Part shown: piece by piece, positions 481-52,183 of the stretch
Layout: each line of letters starts with the position of its first letter
Position numbering within the stretch: the first letter of the stretch is position 1
DNA from: Candidatus Rokuibacteriota bacterium
GTDB taxonomy: Bacteria > Methylomirabilota > Methylomirabilia > Rokubacteriales > CSP1-6
DNA length: 64,000 nt
Assembly: GCA_023249095.1 (NCBI GenBank)
Contig: JAHFDK010000008.1
Span: 9,322-73,321, forward strand
Reading direction: 5' to 3'
Made by a program: the position numbers and the translations under genes
The notes under the pieces: model-generated
What the model was told of the DNA's origin: nothing
Databases searched by the model: none
The model's input: the letters and a program-made list of their open reading frames with translations, nothing else

Positions 481-667
481 GGTGCGAGGCCGAGCGGATT
501 GAATTCGCGAACGCTTGAACCGTCGCCGGCGGGCCGCCGCGCGTCCAGATGGAGCCCAGCCGCCGAGGAGCAGCGCACGGGTGCCGCGTGGTCCAGTCGA
601 CCCCTCGGGCACCCGCCCGCCGCCCGGCGATCGCCAGAATGATTCGACCGATGCACGGTTAGCCGCG

Positions 668-1565: not shown

Positions 1566-2642
1566 ATGCATAGTGCGGTGGCGCTCCTTCGTACGCACCC
1601 GGAGACCGTCGTCGAGGACTACGGGCGCCTGATGCGTCTGGTGAAGTACGACCAGGGGCTCCGCCGCGACCAGGACCTGATCCTCAAGCTCAATCTCTCG
1701 TGGACCAAGTACTTTCCGGCGTGCTCAAGCCAGCCCTGGCAGGTCGACGGCGTGCTGACGACGCTGCTCGAAGACGGCTACGACCGCCGGCGGCTCTTTC
1801 CCGTCGAGAACAAGACCGTGGTCACGGACCCGATCGCCGGATGCCGGAACAACAAGTGGCGTCCGGTGCTCGAGCGTCACGGCGTGCCGTTCATCCCGCT
1901 GCCTGGCGTCGAGTGGACCGTCTATAAGTTCCAGTCGCCGCTGCTCAAGCTGAACGCGATCTTCCCCGAGGGCATCGAGATCCCGAAGATGTACGTCGGG
2001 AAAAACGTGCTCCACCTTCCCACCTGCAAGGTCCACGGACATTCCCGCACGACCGGCGCGATCAAAAACGCGTTCGGTGGCCTGTTAAAGGAAGTGCGCC
2101 ACTACGCGCACGAGTTCATCCACGAGGTGATGGTCGACCTCATGTACATGCAGCGGGAGCTGCACCCCGCGGTGTTCGCCGTGATGGATGGCACGGTGAT
2201 GGGCGACGGTGCGGGGCCACGAACAATGGTGCCGCGTCTCGGGAACCTCATCCTGGCTTCGGCGGATCAAGTGGCGATCGACGCGATCGCGGCGCGGATC
2301 ATGGGGTTCGATCCCCTGGCGATCCCGTATCTCCGGATGTGCCAGGAGCGTGGGCTCGGCGTGGCGGACCCGAAGCGGATCGAGATCGTCGGCGACACGG
2401 ACGCGGCGTCGATCTCGATGGGCTTCAAGACGAGGCGTAGCCTCGTGATCTGGGGCGATCAGCTGATCCGGCGCGGGCCGCTGCGGCCGCTCAAGCGGCT
2501 CTTGCTCCACTCGCCCCTGGTGGTCTGGGCCCCGTTCGCCTCGAACGTCTACCACGACCTCCTCTGGTATCCGACGATCGGCCGGGCGCGCATCCGGACC
2601 TTCGCGCGCACCCCCTGGGGCCGGCTGTTCGAGACGTACTGA
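1566..2642 (+). CDS. DUF362 domain-containing protein
   Basis: 358 aa with good codon periodicity and a tight fit between neighbouring genes. Sequence pattern (MDGTVMGDGAGP, AIDAIAARIMGFDP) recalled as DUF362; function unknown. Confidence 0.45.
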   Translation: MHSAVALLRTHPETVVEDYGRLMRLVKYDQGLRRDQDLILKLNLSWTKYFPACSSQPWQVDGVLTTLLEDGYDRRRLFPVENKTVVTDPIAGCRNNKWRPVLERHGVPFIPLPGVEWTVYKFQSPLLKLNAIFPEGIEIPKMYVGKNVLHLPTCKVHGHSRTTGAIKNAFGGLLKEVRHYAHEFIHEVMVDLMYMQRELHPAVFAVMDGTVMGDGAGPRTMVPRLGNLILASADQVAIDAIAARIMGFDPLAIPYLRMCQERGLGVADPKRIEIVGDTDAASISMGFKTRRSLVIWGDQLIRRGPLRPLKRLLLHSPLVVWAPFASNVYHDLLWYPTIGRARIRTFARTPWGRLFETY

Positions 2643-2643
2643 G

Positions 2644-4056
2644 ATGGCCTCGCCGGTCCGCGTACGATTCGCGCCGAGCCCGACCGGCCACCTCCACGTC
2701 GGCGGCGCGCGCACCGCGCTCTTCAACTGGCTGTTTGCCCGCCACCACCGCGGCGCCTTTGTCCTCCGCATCGAGGACACGGACCGCTCGCGCTCGACCG
2801 ACGAGAACATCGTCGCGATCGTCGACGCACTCCAGTGGCTCGGTCTCGACTGGGACGAGGGGCCGCCGACGCCGGGCTATCGTCAGACCGAGCGGTTCGC
2901 GATCTACCGCGAGCACGCCCAGCGGCTCCTCGCCTCCGGACGGGCCTACTACTGCGACTGCCCGCCCGAGCTTCTCGATCGCGAGCGGGGGGTCGCCCAG
3001 CAGCGGGGCGAGACGTTCCGGTATTCCGGACGCTGTCGCGACCGGGGCCTCGGTGCCGGCGCGCTACGCCTCCGGATTCCCACCGCGGGCGCCACGGTGG
3101 TGAACGATCTCATCCACGGGCCGGTCACGTTCGAGCACAGCCAGCTCGACGACTGGATCCTTGTCCGCACGGACGGAACGCCCACGTACAACTTCTGCGT
3201 CGTCGTCGACGACGTCACGATGAGCATCACCCACGTCATTCGCGGCGACGACCATCTGTCGAACACTCCCAAGCAGATCCTCTGTTACGAAGCGCTCGAC
3301 TACGCCGTCCCCGAGTTCGCCCACGTGTCGCTGATCCTGGGCAAGGATCGAAGCCGCCTCTCGAAGCGTCACGGCGCCACGTCCGTCCAGGCCTTCCGCG
3401 ATTCGGGCATCCCCGCCGACGCGCTGGTGAACTACCTGGCGCGGCTCGGCTGGTCGCACGGCGACCAGGAGGTGTTCTCCCGCGCCGAGCTCGTCGAGCT
3501 CTTCGACATCAAGAACGTCGCCTCGTCCGGCGCGGTCTTCGACGCGACCAAGCTCGAGTGGCTCTCGCAACTCTATCTGAAGACGATGGACGGTGCGCGG
3601 CTGGCGGAGCTGGCCGAGCCGTTCGTCAGGGCGGTTGGACTCACGCCGCCACCCGATCGCCCCCGGTTCATCGCGATGCTCGACACGCTTCGGGAGCGTG
3701 CGAAGACCCTGGTCGAGCTGGTCGAGCAGGGGCGGTTCTACTTCGAGCGCCCCGCGGCGTACGAGGCGAAAGCCGCGCAGACGCTCCTGACGGTCGAGGG
3801 CGCTCGGCGCCTCGGACTCGTGATCGCGCGGCTCGAGGGGGCGCCCGAGTTCACGGTGGCGGCGATCGAGCGCGTCTTCCGGGCGCTCACCGAGGAGCTC
3901 GGGCTCAAGCTCGTCGACCTCGCGCAGCTCGCGCGCCTCGCGGCGACCGGCCGCACGGCGTCGCCGCCCATCTTCGACGTGCTGGCCCTGGTCGGGCGCG
4001 AGGAGTCGCTGGTGCGCCTGCGCCGCGCGCGCGAGGCCGCGGAGCGGACGGCGTGA
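2644..4056 (+). CDS. gltX: Glutamate--tRNA ligase
   Basis: RFAPSPTGHLHVGGARTALFNW...LRIEDTD class-I HIGH region, colinear with GluRS along its length. Confidence 0.9.
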   Translation: MASPVRVRFAPSPTGHLHVGGARTALFNWLFARHHRGAFVLRIEDTDRSRSTDENIVAIVDALQWLGLDWDEGPPTPGYRQTERFAIYREHAQRLLASGRAYYCDCPPELLDRERGVAQQRGETFRYSGRCRDRGLGAGALRLRIPTAGATVVNDLIHGPVTFEHSQLDDWILVRTDGTPTYNFCVVVDDVTMSITHVIRGDDHLSNTPKQILCYEALDYAVPEFAHVSLILGKDRSRLSKRHGATSVQAFRDSGIPADALVNYLARLGWSHGDQEVFSRAELVELFDIKNVASSGAVFDATKLEWLSQLYLKTMDGARLAELAEPFVRAVGLTPPPDRPRFIAMLDTLRERAKTLVELVEQGRFYFERPAAYEAKAAQTLLTVEGARRLGLVIARLEGAPEFTVAAIERVFRALTEELGLKLVDLAQLARLAATGRTASPPIFDVLALVGREESLVRLRRAREAAERTA

Positions 4057-4840
4057 GGCTCCTGCTCGCGCGCCACGGGCAGTCGGTGTGGAACCAGGTG
4101 CGGAAGTTCCAGGGCACCAACGACGTCGGCCTCTCCGACCTCGGGCGCGCGCAGGCCGAGGCGCTCGGGCGTGCCCTCCGCGGCGGCTATCGCGTCGCGG
4201 CCGCGTACGTGAGCCCGATGCGCCGGGCCATGGACACGGCGGAGATCGCGCTGGCCGGGACCGGGATCCCGCTGGTGCCCATCCCCGAGCTGCGCGAGCT
4301 GTCACTCGGCGAATGGGAGGGCTGCACGGTCGACGAGATCCGAGCGCGCGAGGGCAATCCGTACCTCGCATGGGTCCGGTCACCGCTGGATTGCCCGCCG
4401 CCCGGCGGCGAGCCGCTGCCGGACGTCTGCGCCCGCGTTCTGCACGCGATCGGACGGATCGGCGCGGACCATCGAAACGGGGATGATGTCCTCGTCGTCG
4501 CGCATGGCGGGGTGATCAGCGTGTATCTCTGCCACTTGCTCGGCGTCTCGTTCAACGCGCTCTGGCGAATGCGGATCGACAACGCCTCGCTGACGATCGC
4601 CCGGCCGCCGCGCCTGGTGTCGGTCAACGACACGACGCACTTACCGCCTACGCCTCGCACCATGTGGTTTGACGTCTCGGGGGCCGGGGGCGGCCCGGGG
4701 GGTGCGTCCCCCTCGACCCGTGTCGTCAGGACTGACCCGATCACCGCGCGTCCGACACAGACGCCGCCGGTTGCAGCTGGCGTGGTCGAGGGGGACGCAC
4801 CCCCCGGGCCGCCCCCGGCCCCCGAGACGGAGAGAGTTCC

Positions 4841-4844
<4 letters not shown>
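4053..4844 (+). CDS. Histidine phosphatase family protein (phosphoglycerate-mutase-like), with a C-terminal extension read through a foldback element
   Basis: GTG start at 4053 overlaps the gltX stop (GTGA). It carries the RHG catalytic motif (LLLARHGQSVWN) and the downstream H of the family. The conserved domain ends near 4650, but the frame stays open through the palindromic element to TGA at 4842-4844. Confidence 0.65.
4674..4828. repeat. Foldback element copy A: perfect 45-bp inverted arms (4674-4718 / 4784-4828) around a 65-nt core
   Basis: Right arm is the exact reverse complement of the left arm (gtctcgggggccgggggcggcccggggggtgcgtccccctcgacc). The core's reverse complement has termini resembling those of copies B and C. 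Confidence 0.8.
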
Positions 4845-6788
<1,944 letters not shown>

Positions 6789-45232: not shown

Positions 45233-45249
45233 CGTCCTGGCGGGCTGTC

Positions 45250-46266
45250 GTGCTCCTGCTGGCCCTCCTGGCGACCGGCTGCGCCGGCGTCGGAGCTCCC
45301 GTGGCTGGTGCCCCGGCCCATCACCGCGAGCGCGGGTACGCGAACCTGAATCCGTCGCATGTGACCGCCGGCGCCTGGACACGTTTCACGTTCTTCGTCT
45401 CACGCATCTGGGCCAGCACCTTCACGCCGCGGACCGCGAACTTTCCCCAGGTGGCGAGCGACCTCGGGACGATCCATGACAGTCGCGGCGCCGTGACCGT
45501 GACCTGGGTCGGTCATGCGACCCTGTTGATCCAGCTGGACGGCGTCAACATTCTCACCGACCCTCACTGGTCGGCCCGAGCGAGCCTGGTGTCGTTCGCG
45601 GGACCGCGGCGAGTGTCGGCCCCCGGTCTCAAGTTCGAAGATCTACCGCCGATCCACGCGGTCGTGATCTCGCATGACCACTACGATCACCTGGACGAGG
45701 CGACGGTCAGACGGCTCGCCGCGGAGCACCGGCCCCGGTTCTTCGTCCCGCTCGGGCTCAAACAGTGGTTCGCAGACGTCGGCATCACCGATGTCGACGA
45801 GCTCGACTGGTGGGGCAAGCGCGAATTGCGTGGGCTGACGTTCACCTGTGTCCCGGCCCAGCACTTCTCGGGGCGCACTCTCTGGGATCGGAACCGCCGC
45901 CTCTGGAGCGGCTGGGTCGTCGCCGGCCGAGCCAAGCGTCTCTACTTCGCAGGGGACACGGCCTACTTCGACGGGTTCAAGGAGATCGGAGCCCGGCTCG
46001 GCCCGTTCGACCTCGCAGCGGTGCCGATCGGCGCCTACGTGCCCGCGGTCATCATGAAGGCCAGCCACACGACGCCGGAGGAGGCGCTCCGGGCCTTGGC
46101 CGACGTCCGTGGGCAGCGATTGGTTCCGATCCACTGGGGCACGTTCGATCTCGCCGAGGAACCGCTCGACGAGCCTCCGCAGCGGCTCGTCGCCGAAGCT
46201 CGCCGTTTGCGCCTCGACCTCGATCGGATCTGGGTTCTCAAGCACGGCGAAACACGTCGCTGGTGA
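45250..46266 (+). CDS. MBL-fold metallo-hydrolase lipoprotein
   Basis: Lipobox (LLALLATGC) then a beta-lactamase-fold Zn hydrolase (HDHYDHLD, ...HWGTFDL). Start is GTG 45250 or CTG 45229. Confidence 0.65.
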   Translation: MLLLALLATGCAGVGAPVAGAPAHHRERGYANLNPSHVTAGAWTRFTFFVSRIWASTFTPRTANFPQVASDLGTIHDSRGAVTVTWVGHATLLIQLDGVNILTDPHWSARASLVSFAGPRRVSAPGLKFEDLPPIHAVVISHDHYDHLDEATVRRLAAEHRPRFFVPLGLKQWFADVGITDVDELDWWGKRELRGLTFTCVPAQHFSGRTLWDRNRRLWSGWVVAGRAKRLYFAGDTAYFDGFKEIGARLGPFDLAAVPIGAYVPAVIMKASHTTPEEALRALADVRGQRLVPIHWGTFDLAEEPLDEPPQRLVAEARRLRLDLDRIWVLKHGETRRW

Positions 46267-46267
46267 C

Positions 46268-46414
46268 GGGATGGGGTCGGCGAGGGCGGGCGGGGTCCCT
46301 GGCTCGACCCGACTGCTGCGATGCGCTGCGACGAAATTCTTCAGCCTGAGGCGATGCAGCGCTGACTACACGGGTCGAGCCAGGGACCCCGCCCGGCCCT
46401 CGCCGACCCCATCC
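46268..46414. repeat. Foldback element copy B: 43-bp inverted arms (46268-46311 / 46371-46414, one 1-nt indel) around a 59-nt core
   Basis: Arms gggatggggtcggcgagggcgggcggggtccctggctcgacccg and its reverse complement. Core begins ACTGCTGCGAT and ends CGCTGACTACA, matching copy C. Confidence 0.85.
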
Positions 46415-46489
46415 TGTTTACCGCCTGGGTCCCTGATATGGGCCTGGCTGAGCGCAACCCGACCCGGCTGACGAGGCGCGTCTCTAGCG

Positions 46490-47671
46490 TCACAGAGCTT
46501 CGAGGAGGAGGCCTTTCAGATAGCGGGTCTCCGGGACTGTCAGGAGGACGGGGTGGTCGCTGGATTGCGTGAGCCGATCGACGACGCGAAGCCGGACTCC
46601 GGCGTCGGCGGCGGCGTCCCGGCAGATCTCCTCGAAGAGCGCCTCGGACACGTGGTGCGAGCACGAGAAGGTCATTAGGCTTCCGCCGCGCTCGAGCAGG
46701 CGCAGGGCGCGTAGATTGATCTCCTTGTAGCCGCGCGCGGCGGCGTCGAGCGCCGATCGGCTACGAGCGAACGGCGGCGGATCGAGGACGATCACGCCGA
46801 AGCGCGCCCCGGTGCGCTCGAGCCCCCGAAGCTCGTCGAAGGCATTCGCCGCGCGGATCTCCGCCTGGGCCGTGAAGCCGTTCAGCGCGAGGTTCTGGCG
46901 GGCACCGGCGATCGCCTCCGGCGAGGACTCGATGCAGACGGCCCGCCGGGCGCCGCCATGGAGCGCGTGGCAGGCGAAGCCGGCGGTGTAGCTGAAGGCG
47001 TCGAGGACGTCGCGGCCCCTGGCCAGAACGCCGGTACGAGCGCGGTTCTCGCGCTGGTCGAGGTAGGAACCGGTCTTGTGACCGACGCCGATCGTCACCT
47101 CGAAGGCGACGCCGCCTTCGTTCACCCTGACGCTCCGGGGCCCGGAGCCCCGGGCCCACCCGAGGGCCGCCGAGAACCCTTCGAGCCGAGCGGAAGCCTC
47201 CTCGTCCATGTCGAAGGCGAGCGTGCCACTGAACATGTCGGTCAGCGCGGTGGTGATCGTCCGACGGGCGCGCACCATCCCCAGGGTGAGACACTGAATC
47301 ACGAGGACAGGCCCGTAACGGTCCACCACCAGCCCCGGCAGCCCGTCGGCCTCGCTCCAGACGAGGCGGCAGAGCGCCGAAGGCCCCTGCGCCCGATCGC
47401 GCGAGCGCAGGGCGACGGCGCTCTCGAGCCGGCGCCGGAAGAAGGCGACGTCGAGCGGCTCGTCGGTCCAGGTGAAGATGCGGCAGCAGAGGGCGGGGCG
47501 CGGGTTATAGAGGCCGCGCCCGACGAAGTGGCCGGCCGAGTCGATGACCGTGACCGCGGAGCCGGGCTCGACCTCGCTGACGTCGGCGACGTCACCCTTG
47601 AAGATCCAGGGGTGGGTCCGCGCCGTCTCGCGTCCGCGCTTGAGCCGTAGCGCCGCCTGGGCGCGTTTCAC
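46490..47671 (-). CDS. rlmI: Class I SAM-dependent rRNA methyltransferase (RlmI/RlmK-like, PUA + MTase)
   Basis: RETARTHPWIFKGDV N-terminus, PUA-like domain and MTase motifs (DAFSYTAGFACHA, VIVLDPPPFARS). GTG start overlaps the GNAT stop (GTGA). Confidence 0.75.
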   Translation of the reverse strand: MKRAQAALRLKRGRETARTHPWIFKGDVADVSEVEPGSAVTVIDSAGHFVGRGLYNPRPALCCRIFTWTDEPLDVAFFRRRLESAVALRSRDRAQGPSALCRLVWSEADGLPGLVVDRYGPVLVIQCLTLGMVRARRTITTALTDMFSGTLAFDMDEEASARLEGFSAALGWARGSGPRSVRVNEGGVAFEVTIGVGHKTGSYLDQRENRARTGVLARGRDVLDAFSYTAGFACHALHGGARRAVCIESSPEAIAGARQNLALNGFTAQAEIRAANAFDELRGLERTGARFGVIVLDPPPFARSRSALDAAARGYKEINLRALRLLERGGSLMTFSCSHHVSEALFEEICRDAAADAGVRLRVVDRLTQSSDHPVLLTVPETRYLKGLLLEAL

Positions 47672-49875: not shown

Positions 49876-49946
49876 GAATTCTCCGTCACTCTAGCGGCTC
49901 GCTGATCGATTGCAAGCGGAAAGTAGCGCGTCCGGGCGCGGGCACC

Positions 49947-50201
49947 GCTGAAGCGTCGGCTCGGCCGTCGACCGGCCTCACCTCCTGCTGTCGAGCCGCT
50001 GAAGCGTCGGCTCGGCCGTCGAGCGGCCTCACCTCCTACTGTCGAGCCGCTGAAGCGTCGGCTCGGCCGTCGACCGGCCTCACCTCCTACTGTCGAGCCG
50101 CTGAAGCGTCGGCTCGGCCGTCGACCGGCCTCACCTCCTACTGTCGAGCCGCTGAAGCGTCGGCTCGGCCGTCGACCGGCCTCACCTCCTACTGCGGGGC
50201 G
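49947..50201. repeat. Five tandem copies of a 51-bp unit (gctgaagcgtcggctcggccgtcgaccggcctcacctcctactgtcgagcc)
   Basis: Copies begin at 49947, 49998, 50049, 50100 and 50151, nearly identical with 1-2 substitutions. They lie in the speB / speH divergent intergenic region. Confidence 0.9.
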
Positions 50202-51763: not shown

Positions 51764-52030
51764 ATGGCAGCCCAGCGCGGCATCGGGCTGATCCTCCTGG
51801 TCGTCATCGCCGGCTTGGTCGTGGGCTCCCTTCTCGGCGAGATTCTCGGCAGCCTTCTCCCGGCCGGCCGCGCCCAGGACTTGATCACGCGCGGGCCGAC
51901 GATCGGCCTCGCGCCGCCCGCGACACTGGATCTGCGATTCCTGGCCATGACCTTCGGCCTGAGCCTCAAGGTCAATCTGGTCGGCGTCGTGGGGATCGTC
52001 CTCGCCGCGGTCACTCTTCGCCGTCTCTAG
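51764..52030 (+). CDS. DUF4321-like small membrane protein
   Basis: 88 aa with two TM segments, GSLLGEILGSLLP and a conserved LDLRFLAMTFGLSLKVNL pattern, as recalled for DUF4321. Confidence 0.5.
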   Translation: MAAQRGIGLILLVVIAGLVVGSLLGEILGSLLPAGRAQDLITRGPTIGLAPPATLDLRFLAMTFGLSLKVNLVGVVGIVLAAVTLRRL

Positions 52031-52183
52031 GCGGCTCGCCGGGGGGAGGGCGTGAGGGGACCGGCCGGTATCCGACTGCTGCGATCCGGGACTTGAAGAT
52101 CATGTGCGCAGCGCGAGGTCAACGCTGACTACACGGATCCCGGCCGGTCCCCTCACGCCCTCCCCCCGGCGACCCGACTAGAG
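52025..52183. repeat. Foldback element copy C: 38-bp near-perfect inverted arms (52037-52074 / 52134-52171, one mismatch; imperfect extension to about 50 bp) around a 59-nt core
   Basis: Arms cgccggggggagggcgtgaggggaccggccggtatccg and its reverse complement. Core begins ACTGCTGCGAT and ends CGCTGACTACA. The extended arms reach the upstream TAG stop and the maf ATG. Confidence 0.85.

Follow-up and report, generated by a model that had tools for sequence, protein, structure and literature searches.

An apparently undescribed family of miniature foldback repeats at gene ends in Rokubacteria

Introduction

Rokubacteria form an abundant, uncultured soil phylum with large genomes. In a 64,000-nucleotide stretch of DNA from Candidatus Rokuibacteriota, hereafter the window, the stop codon of a gene for an MBL-fold hydrolase is followed directly by a long GC-rich palindrome, and the question raised by this locus is what kind of element the palindrome is and how its stem is kept paired. 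An earlier note had described the structure, had seen that the ends of its loop recur in a second element, and had offered two explanations: a small mobile element whose insertion creates an inverted duplication of flanking DNA, or a structured RNA whose stem is kept paired by covariation. From the comparisons reported here, the palindrome (copy B) and two other elements of the window (copies A and C) belong to an apparently undescribed, Rokubacteria-specific family of miniature foldback repeats located at gene ends.

A long foldback element behind an MBL-fold hydrolase gene

The MBL-fold hydrolase gene (45241-46266, plus strand; Pfam Lactamase_B_2/B_3) ends with the TGA at 46264-46266, which adjoins the left arm of copy B. 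The gene on the other side is convergent and encodes an RlmI-like SAM methyltransferase (46490-47671, minus strand; its start is approximate and was taken from 393-amino-acid orthologs). The 147-bp palindrome that had been reported between them is real. It forms a hairpin in which inverted GC-rich arms (46267-46311 and 46371-46416) enclose a 59-nt core at 46312-46370, the arms somewhat exceeding the 43 nt originally claimed. The arms, to which no strand is assigned, are G-rich on the left (5') and C-rich on the right, and the right arm has one base more than the left. A gapped alignment of the two gives 46 pairs, 45 of them Watson-Crick and one G:T, plus one gap. Because of this 1-nt indel, an inverted-repeat search breaks the arms into two blocks, 46284-46311/46371-46398 (28 nt, 96%) and 46266-46295/46388-46417 (30 nt, 87%). 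In a close relative, L045, both arms are perfect. The outer part of the left arm is specific to the locus, and the inner ~16 nt, TCCCTGGCTCGACCCG, are common to copy C and to the elements of L003 and L112. The core, on the plus strand, has conserved ends, ACTGCTGC at 46312-46319 and GCTGACTACA at 46361-46370, and a centre that is unconstrained and unstructured.

Folding in silico, which had been proposed as a check, gave a minimum of -125.4 kcal/mol for copy B as RNA (z = -13) and -75.9 kcal/mol as DNA (z = -14.5), and in neither case was any of 200 shuffles as good. In the MBL transcript, so stable a stem past the stop codon would likely be a 3'-end barrier or a processing site; in an mRNA it could stop exonucleases or polymerase, or recruit RNase III. 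Between the corresponding element and RlmI, L003 carries ~400 additional nt (4320-4760), part of them lower in GC, that are missing from the window.

Two related elements in the window

Copy A (52025-52183, plus strand) has 50-nt arms at 52025-52074 and 52134-52183 that are 94% matched, and a core at 52075-52133. Its arms span the interval from the stop codon of a DUF4321 gene (CTCTAG) to 2 nt before the ATG of Maf (CTAGAG-CC-ATG). The claim that the 11-nt core ends of copy B recur in this element was confirmed: the window holds exactly two occurrences of ACTGCTGCGAT (46312 and 52075) and exactly two of CGCTGACTACA (46360 and 52123), with an identical spacing of 37 nt between them. Of the central 37 nt, only 12 agree, as many as expected at random, and the arms of the two copies have no significant similarity beyond the closing CCG/CGG. 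The view that centres and arms are unrelated between copies is therefore right for A and B. It does not extend to wholly copy-specific arms, as the inner 13 to 16 nt are common within subfamilies.

Copy C (4673-4829, minus strand) has 46-nt arms at 4673-4718 and 4784-4829 that match at 100%, around a 65-nt core that is reversed and has diverged ends. On the minus strand, CTGACGACACGG stands exactly at the junction of core and arm, where copies A and B have CTGACTACACGG, and copy C aligns to copy B over its full length, the inner arm CTCGACC(CG) included. Copy C is thus a diverged member of the family in reverse orientation. A scan of the window for long inverted repeats found none that approaches copies A, B, and C. 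The window also holds a tandem repeat of a 51-nt unit (4.9 copies, 98% matches) at 49945-50194, between an agmatinase-like gene and SpeD.

Occurrence in Rokubacteria

A strict pattern built on the core ends was run against 185,579 species genomes and gave one real match, a copy A ortholog between the same two genes in a Candidatus Rokuibacteriota MAG that is ~96-97% identical to the window and is its nearest genome; a match in Paraglaciecola was rejected as chance. An exact look-up of the Maf protein encoded by the window gave no record. Homologs of Maf and of the Na/Pi transporter were then used to reach syntenic loci in many Rokubacteria MAGs and soil metagenomes. With a relaxed pattern, the metagenomes yielded at least 28 matches with flanking arms, every core being 59-60 nt among the matches listed, and at least 104 matches without arms, which had the flat length spread (56-62 nt) that chance predicts. 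On viral contigs, all 18 of 18 matches were without arms and were set aside as chance.

The type of element represented by copies A, B, and C (type 1) was found at six or more distinct loci in Rokubacteria: between MBL and RlmI, between DUF4321 and Maf, between His_Phos_1 and Na-Pi, at the 3' end of a periplasmic-binding-protein gene, between a Usp/PCP_red gene and a radical-SAM gene, and at the L112 locus. The pattern search and copy count suggested by the earlier note thus brought out a real family with at least six loci in relatives, not a two-copy oddity. The 64-kb window holds three copies, and ~75 kb surrounding the Na/Pi locus in other lineages holds none. The comparisons of loci show that the family is dispersed, is present or absent between lineages, and occurs in either orientation. 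Rfam 15 has no family that matches types 1 to 3 (types 2 and 3 are described below) at its gathering threshold or by E-value, the only sub-threshold matches being to generic miRNA-like hairpins, and a literature search found no record of palindromes in Rokubacteria. Both results bear out the impression that no described repeat family fits.

An ordinary intrinsic terminator hairpin would suit the position of copy B between convergent genes, and an assembly artefact would suit the frequency with which contigs break at the elements. Indeed, L001, L005, L006, L007, and L112 end, carry runs of N, or carry collapsed variants exactly at the hairpins, so short-read assemblies under-count them. Nevertheless, we regard either reading as almost certainly wrong. 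Scans found no U-tract terminator, copies lie within operons and inside an open reading frame, the core ends are conserved across loci, and the same elements recur in independent NCBI, JGI, and ENA assemblies.

Core, arms, and alternative core types

The core ends ACTGCTGC ... GCTGACTACA are asymmetric and conserved, together with a closing CYG/CRG pair. Their invariance in the metagenome matches is partly imposed by the search pattern, and only the copies found by synteny are unbiased; these (L003 A and B, L008, L009, and L134) have at most one change each in the core ends. Most cores measure 59-60 nt; longer ones are those of L134 (62 nt) and copy C (65 nt). The core centre varies freely between copies. 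RNAalifold found no conserved structure among 15 cores, and cores folded alone were no better than shuffles. Scans in and around the cores gave nothing promoter-like, and no tRNA was found. On inspection, the core ends did not fit K-turn, C/D-box, hammerhead, or retron sequences. A small peptide was also considered, as some A-type cores hold an ATG...TGA frame, and was rejected when the frame proved to be lost or shifted in L079 and L092.

The inner 13-16 nt of the arms are common within subfamilies at different loci, and the outer arms are locus-specific. The inner arm of the B subfamily is TCCCyGGCTCGACCCG and that of the A subfamily is ..CCGGGATCCG; both recur at different loci. Homology between the A-type arms of the Maf and radical-SAM sites extends along most of the arm (z up to 6.6). 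The elements lie 0-6 nt past stop codons, and the arms of the radical-SAM copy span from TAG to CC-ATG. The full stem would thus be composed of inner arms borne by the element and outer arms belonging to the locus, nested in or beside GC-rich hairpins at gene ends. In L134 (9801-10000), a tandem duplication, which may be real or an assembly effect, covers a type-1 core, its right arm, and the ~75 nt at the start of maf.

Two other cores, type 2 (~93 nt) and type 3 (~62 nt, with a UNCG-capped stem), are long-armed like type 1 and, in other lineages, are found at the intergenic sites that type 1 fills elsewhere. The arms enclosing a type-3 core at the Maf site share homology with those enclosing type-1 cores (z 5-8). 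Several individual loci add to this picture. In the window, a type-2 core remnant with short, degenerate arms lies at 481-612 (blastn match 538-593, minus strand) between the stop of a UDP-glucose dehydrogenase gene and a UbiA gene. In L134 (3630-4062), two type-3 elements with UUCG or UCCG loops lie between convergent MBL and RlmI, each forward to its own upstream gene, and in L136 (5398-5640) a 68-nt copy of the maf 5' coding end and a type-3 core lie together between 39-nt arms that are homologous to the arms of copy A.

Concerted evolution of the arms and inversion of the core

In a set of 18 distinct type-1 elements, Watson-Crick pairs make up 798 of the 819 arm positions (97%). The 21 others comprise 5 G:T, 9 A:C, and 7 further mismatches, without an excess of G:U. 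Among eight copy A orthologs, changes on both sides were found at 16 of 50 pairs (31 cells), as opposed to 2 cells with a one-sided change of the G:U type; none of 500 shuffles and no slid register reached this double-change signal. About half of the double changes are transversions, which are as frequent as the transition type. Length changes are mirrored as well, G6/C6 in the window standing against G5/C5 in L001, and L045 carries the indel of copy B on both arms. This comparison of orthologs shows concerted evolution of the two arms at the level of DNA. Of the two possibilities raised for such a palindrome, recent formation or active maintenance, the second holds, the arms being actively maintained.

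One explanation for such pairing is a cis-acting structured RNA in 3' untranslated regions and between cistrons, in which the stem is selected and the loop ends ACUGCUGC / GCUGACUACA form a protein or RNase site serving mRNA stabilization, RNase III processing, or termination. The position of the elements just after stop codons agrees with this, as do the forward orientation relative to the upstream gene at four of the five oriented loci and the very high predicted RNA stability. So does the UUCG/UCCG-capped stem of type 3, which shows a compensatory change and faces forward, on the sense strand, in all four cases. The G-richness of the 5' arm, seen in 18 of 19 arms, also points this way; it holds on both strands, the arms being palindromic. 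However, an RNA stem under selection is expected to pass through G:U intermediates and to favor transitions. With few G:U intermediates, A:C and other mismatches at least as common as G:U, and half of the double changes transversions, the arms appear to be DNA segments copying each other and not the object of selection at the RNA level. In the covariation test across copies, double changes are abundant, but their pattern is a DNA-level one. Furthermore, the core lacks conserved or above-chance structure, copies persist in both orientations (copy C; L008/L010/L011), one copy is translated within a protein tail, and Rfam holds no match. In light of this, the structured RNA envisaged earlier now seems to us an unlikely account of the family.

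Homogenization by template switching is a better fit to the arm pattern than selection at the RNA level. Documented effects of template switching between inverted repeats include the homogenization and expansion of arms and the inversion of spacers (PMC8604942, PMC13100816, PMC8794818). These same three outcomes are seen here. Template-switch (quasipalindrome) mutagenesis is, however, a mutational process and not a family of elements, and it explains neither why the core ends are conserved nor how the element reached new loci.

Spacer inversion is represented by L009 and L011. These two MAGs share 99.8% identity over 20 kb, and their elements between MBL and RlmI differ by an inversion of the core and mirrored arm changes. 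Within otherwise identical flanks, the two cores also differ by 11 substitutions, for which template switching alone does not account. A second cluster of 158 differences between L009 and L011 lies in a TPR-repeat gene (L009, 19220-19651). An inverton, in which the core flips to switch the expression of a neighboring gene, would account for these opposite orientations and for the reversed core of copy C. We consider it very improbable. The 11 substitutions between the flipped alleles imply that flipping is rare and does not serve as a running switch, the cores and their surroundings lack a promoter-like site, and no invertase gene was seen nearby. In addition, 59 bp is very short for a recombinase-mediated inversion.

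Gain, loss, and the insertion of copy C

Sites without the element were found in two settings. L135, whose Maf is 74% identical, has neither arms nor core at both orthologous sites; 23 nt separate DUF4321 from maf, and 110 nt without a long hairpin separate MBL from RlmI. The other setting is the site of copy C, which lies in the His_Phos_1 gene (4053-4844, plus strand). This gene encodes 263 amino acids, compared with 226 in a relative at 95% identity, and its reading frame runs on through copy C; the GTGA overlap between this gene and the following Na/Pi-PhoU gene (4841-6448) is kept. An independent JGI assembly, L143, has the same 263-amino-acid gene and copy C with few substitutions. Copy C is missing in relatives at 95%, 90%, 86%, and 82% identity; in its place stands a shorter palindrome or hairpin. 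The 95% relative has a perfect, core-less 44-bp palindrome centered on CCG/CGG, the arms of which match the outer arms of copy C, and in the relatives at 90%, 86%, and 82% the hairpins are shorter and their loops, of 5-30 nt, are unrelated. The filled and empty sites differ by 111 nt (37 codons), corresponding to the core plus the inner arms, placed at the apex of the palindrome. When long core-less palindromes were considered as a pool of targets, only L137 qualified. As an observation on the neighboring sequence, the DUF362 gene of the window (1566-2642) lacks an intein, and a DUF362 homolog in L142 (5198-7846) carries one (Intein_splicing plus LAGLIDADG).

By parsimony, copy C would be an insertion that took place in the lineage of the window at the apex of an older hairpin. 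The proposal that insertion itself creates an inverted duplication of the flank finds no support at 4673-4829, the only site with readable polarity, where core-less relatives already have the outer arms as a palindrome and the inner arms travel with the core. The comparison with empty sites thus bore out one expectation and not the other: such sites exist, in L135 and in the relatives lacking copy C, but the outer arms at the copy C site were already paired without a core. We read the copy-specific arms as older local hairpin sequence, seen for copy C only, plus the inner repeats of the element, which would have been perfected later by template switching. What stands of the mobile-element explanation is that the family moves or is copied, as indicated by six or more loci, the empty sites, and one clean case of presence and absence. 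From such comparative patterns we infer that the element is mobile.

A search for the signs that a conventional mobile element would leave turned up no transposase, no target-site duplication, and no full-length parent element. In particular, no direct repeat is seen at the arm boundaries, where the targets are palindromic and the empty sites too diverged for a firm reading, and a limited sample of 558 kb of Rokubacteria DNA held no solo right ends and no parent IS, contig and assembly breaks aside.

Relation to known elements

We rate REPINs, long-TIR MITEs, Rickettsia palindromic elements (RPEs), and REP-targeting insertion sequences as the closest known kinds. REPINs mobilized by RAYT (PMC3116915, PMC3333891) are non-coding hairpins of ~100-150 nt with two inverted arms and a spacer, and are extragenic, dispersed, and vertically long-lived, with a hairpin kept by paired changes; in all of these respects they resemble the elements described here. 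An origin as a REP/REPIN-type element mobilized by a RAYT (Y1 HUH) transposase, or as a non-autonomous derivative of the IS200/IS605 type, could explain the hairpin doublet with spacer, the GTAG within a conserved end on the minus strand (TGTAGTCAGC), the asymmetric ends with no target-site duplication seen, and the long-term vertical persistence at fixed sites. The conservation is nevertheless reversed. In REPINs, the arms (REPs) are conserved and the spacer varies, whereas here the arms vary and the spacer ends are conserved, the arms of A, B, and C being unrelated beyond the inner subfamily segment. Moreover, the GTAG or GTGG of a REP is at the 5' foot of the hairpin, and the GTAG here is on the loop side of a long stem. 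The gene tables of the loci examined list no RAYT or TnpA gene. Such an origin is accordingly one that we rate as quite unlikely, and the earlier judgement that the palindrome is neither a plain terminator nor a REP holds, the U-tract of the former and the conserved arms that define the latter both being missing.

Bacterial MITEs with long TIRs, Correia and ERIC among them, are likewise small, non-autonomous, and multi-copy, with inverted repeats common within subfamilies and with presence or absence between lineages (PMC10969869). Their stable hairpins are co-transcribed with neighboring genes (PMC10969869), a likeness that may, by analogy, extend to the elements here. Unlike in MITEs, no target-site duplication or parent IS was seen for the Rokubacteria elements, their stem is mostly locus-specific, and three unrelated cores have one architecture. 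RPEs, of ~100-150 bp, can sit in frame inside protein-coding genes (PMC10969869). Copy C alone is comparable, adding 37 codons to the His_Phos_1 tail with frame and overlap kept, and this is analogy and not homology; there is no sequence relationship, the phylum is different, and the elements here are mostly intergenic and abut stop and start codons. Insertion into an existing palindrome, as with copy C, is known from REP-targeting insertion sequences, namely, IS1397 and members of the IS110 family (PMC1525189, PMC12288879), but those are full elements that encode a transposase, and the unit here is non-coding and ~90-110 nt long. Two further systems were compared. Integron attC sites conserve their outer R''/R' boxes, as opposed to the inner stem ends conserved here, and the genes flanking our elements are syntenic housekeeping genes. 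A retron non-coding RNA is not indicated by an unstructured core of only 59 nt, with MBL, RlmI, DUF4321, and Maf as neighbors in place of a reverse transcriptase.

Proposed mechanism and significance

We think it probable that these elements are a Rokubacteria family of miniature foldback repeats whose arms are homogenized by template switching and whose core ends are read by a copying agent. The element would have spread through a structure-directed process that reads the core ends, these ends being the recognition site of the agent, which may be a trans-acting enzyme working on a hairpin or single-stranded DNA or may be hairpin-to-hairpin copy-choice. Once in place, template switching between the arms, within or between molecules, would homogenize them, let them grow outward to the neighboring stop and start codons, and occasionally invert the core; such growth would explain why stems end at stop and start codons. 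Insertions within operons could persist without breaking translational coupling, as the closed stem would bring the upstream stop beside the downstream start. Tolerance would then depend either on this adjacency or on a preserved reading frame.

A bolder proposal, to which we give little credence, treats the cores as cassettes with a mode of mobility not yet described in bacteria. Either an enzyme that recognizes the asymmetric core ends would insert them at the apex of an extruded GC-rich hairpin or they would move without a transposase, by copy-choice between hairpins via microhomology of G-runs, with at least three unrelated core types taking this route and replacing each other at shared sites. 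Alternatively, within the same proposal, the single-stranded ends on a 45-bp stem might serve as handles for RNA processing.

In the reading that we favor, that of foldback repeats homogenized by template switching, Rokubacteria contain an apparently undescribed class of repeat in which the stem varies and the loop ends are conserved, the reverse of the usual bacterial palindromic repeats. The elements would provide a natural record of template switching, with stems of 45-50 bp kept perfect, extended to gene boundaries, and with their spacers flipped. In practical terms, they break metagenome assemblies and can add Gly/Pro-rich tails to proteins. Their conserved core ends point to a candidate protein or copying mechanism in these bacteria.
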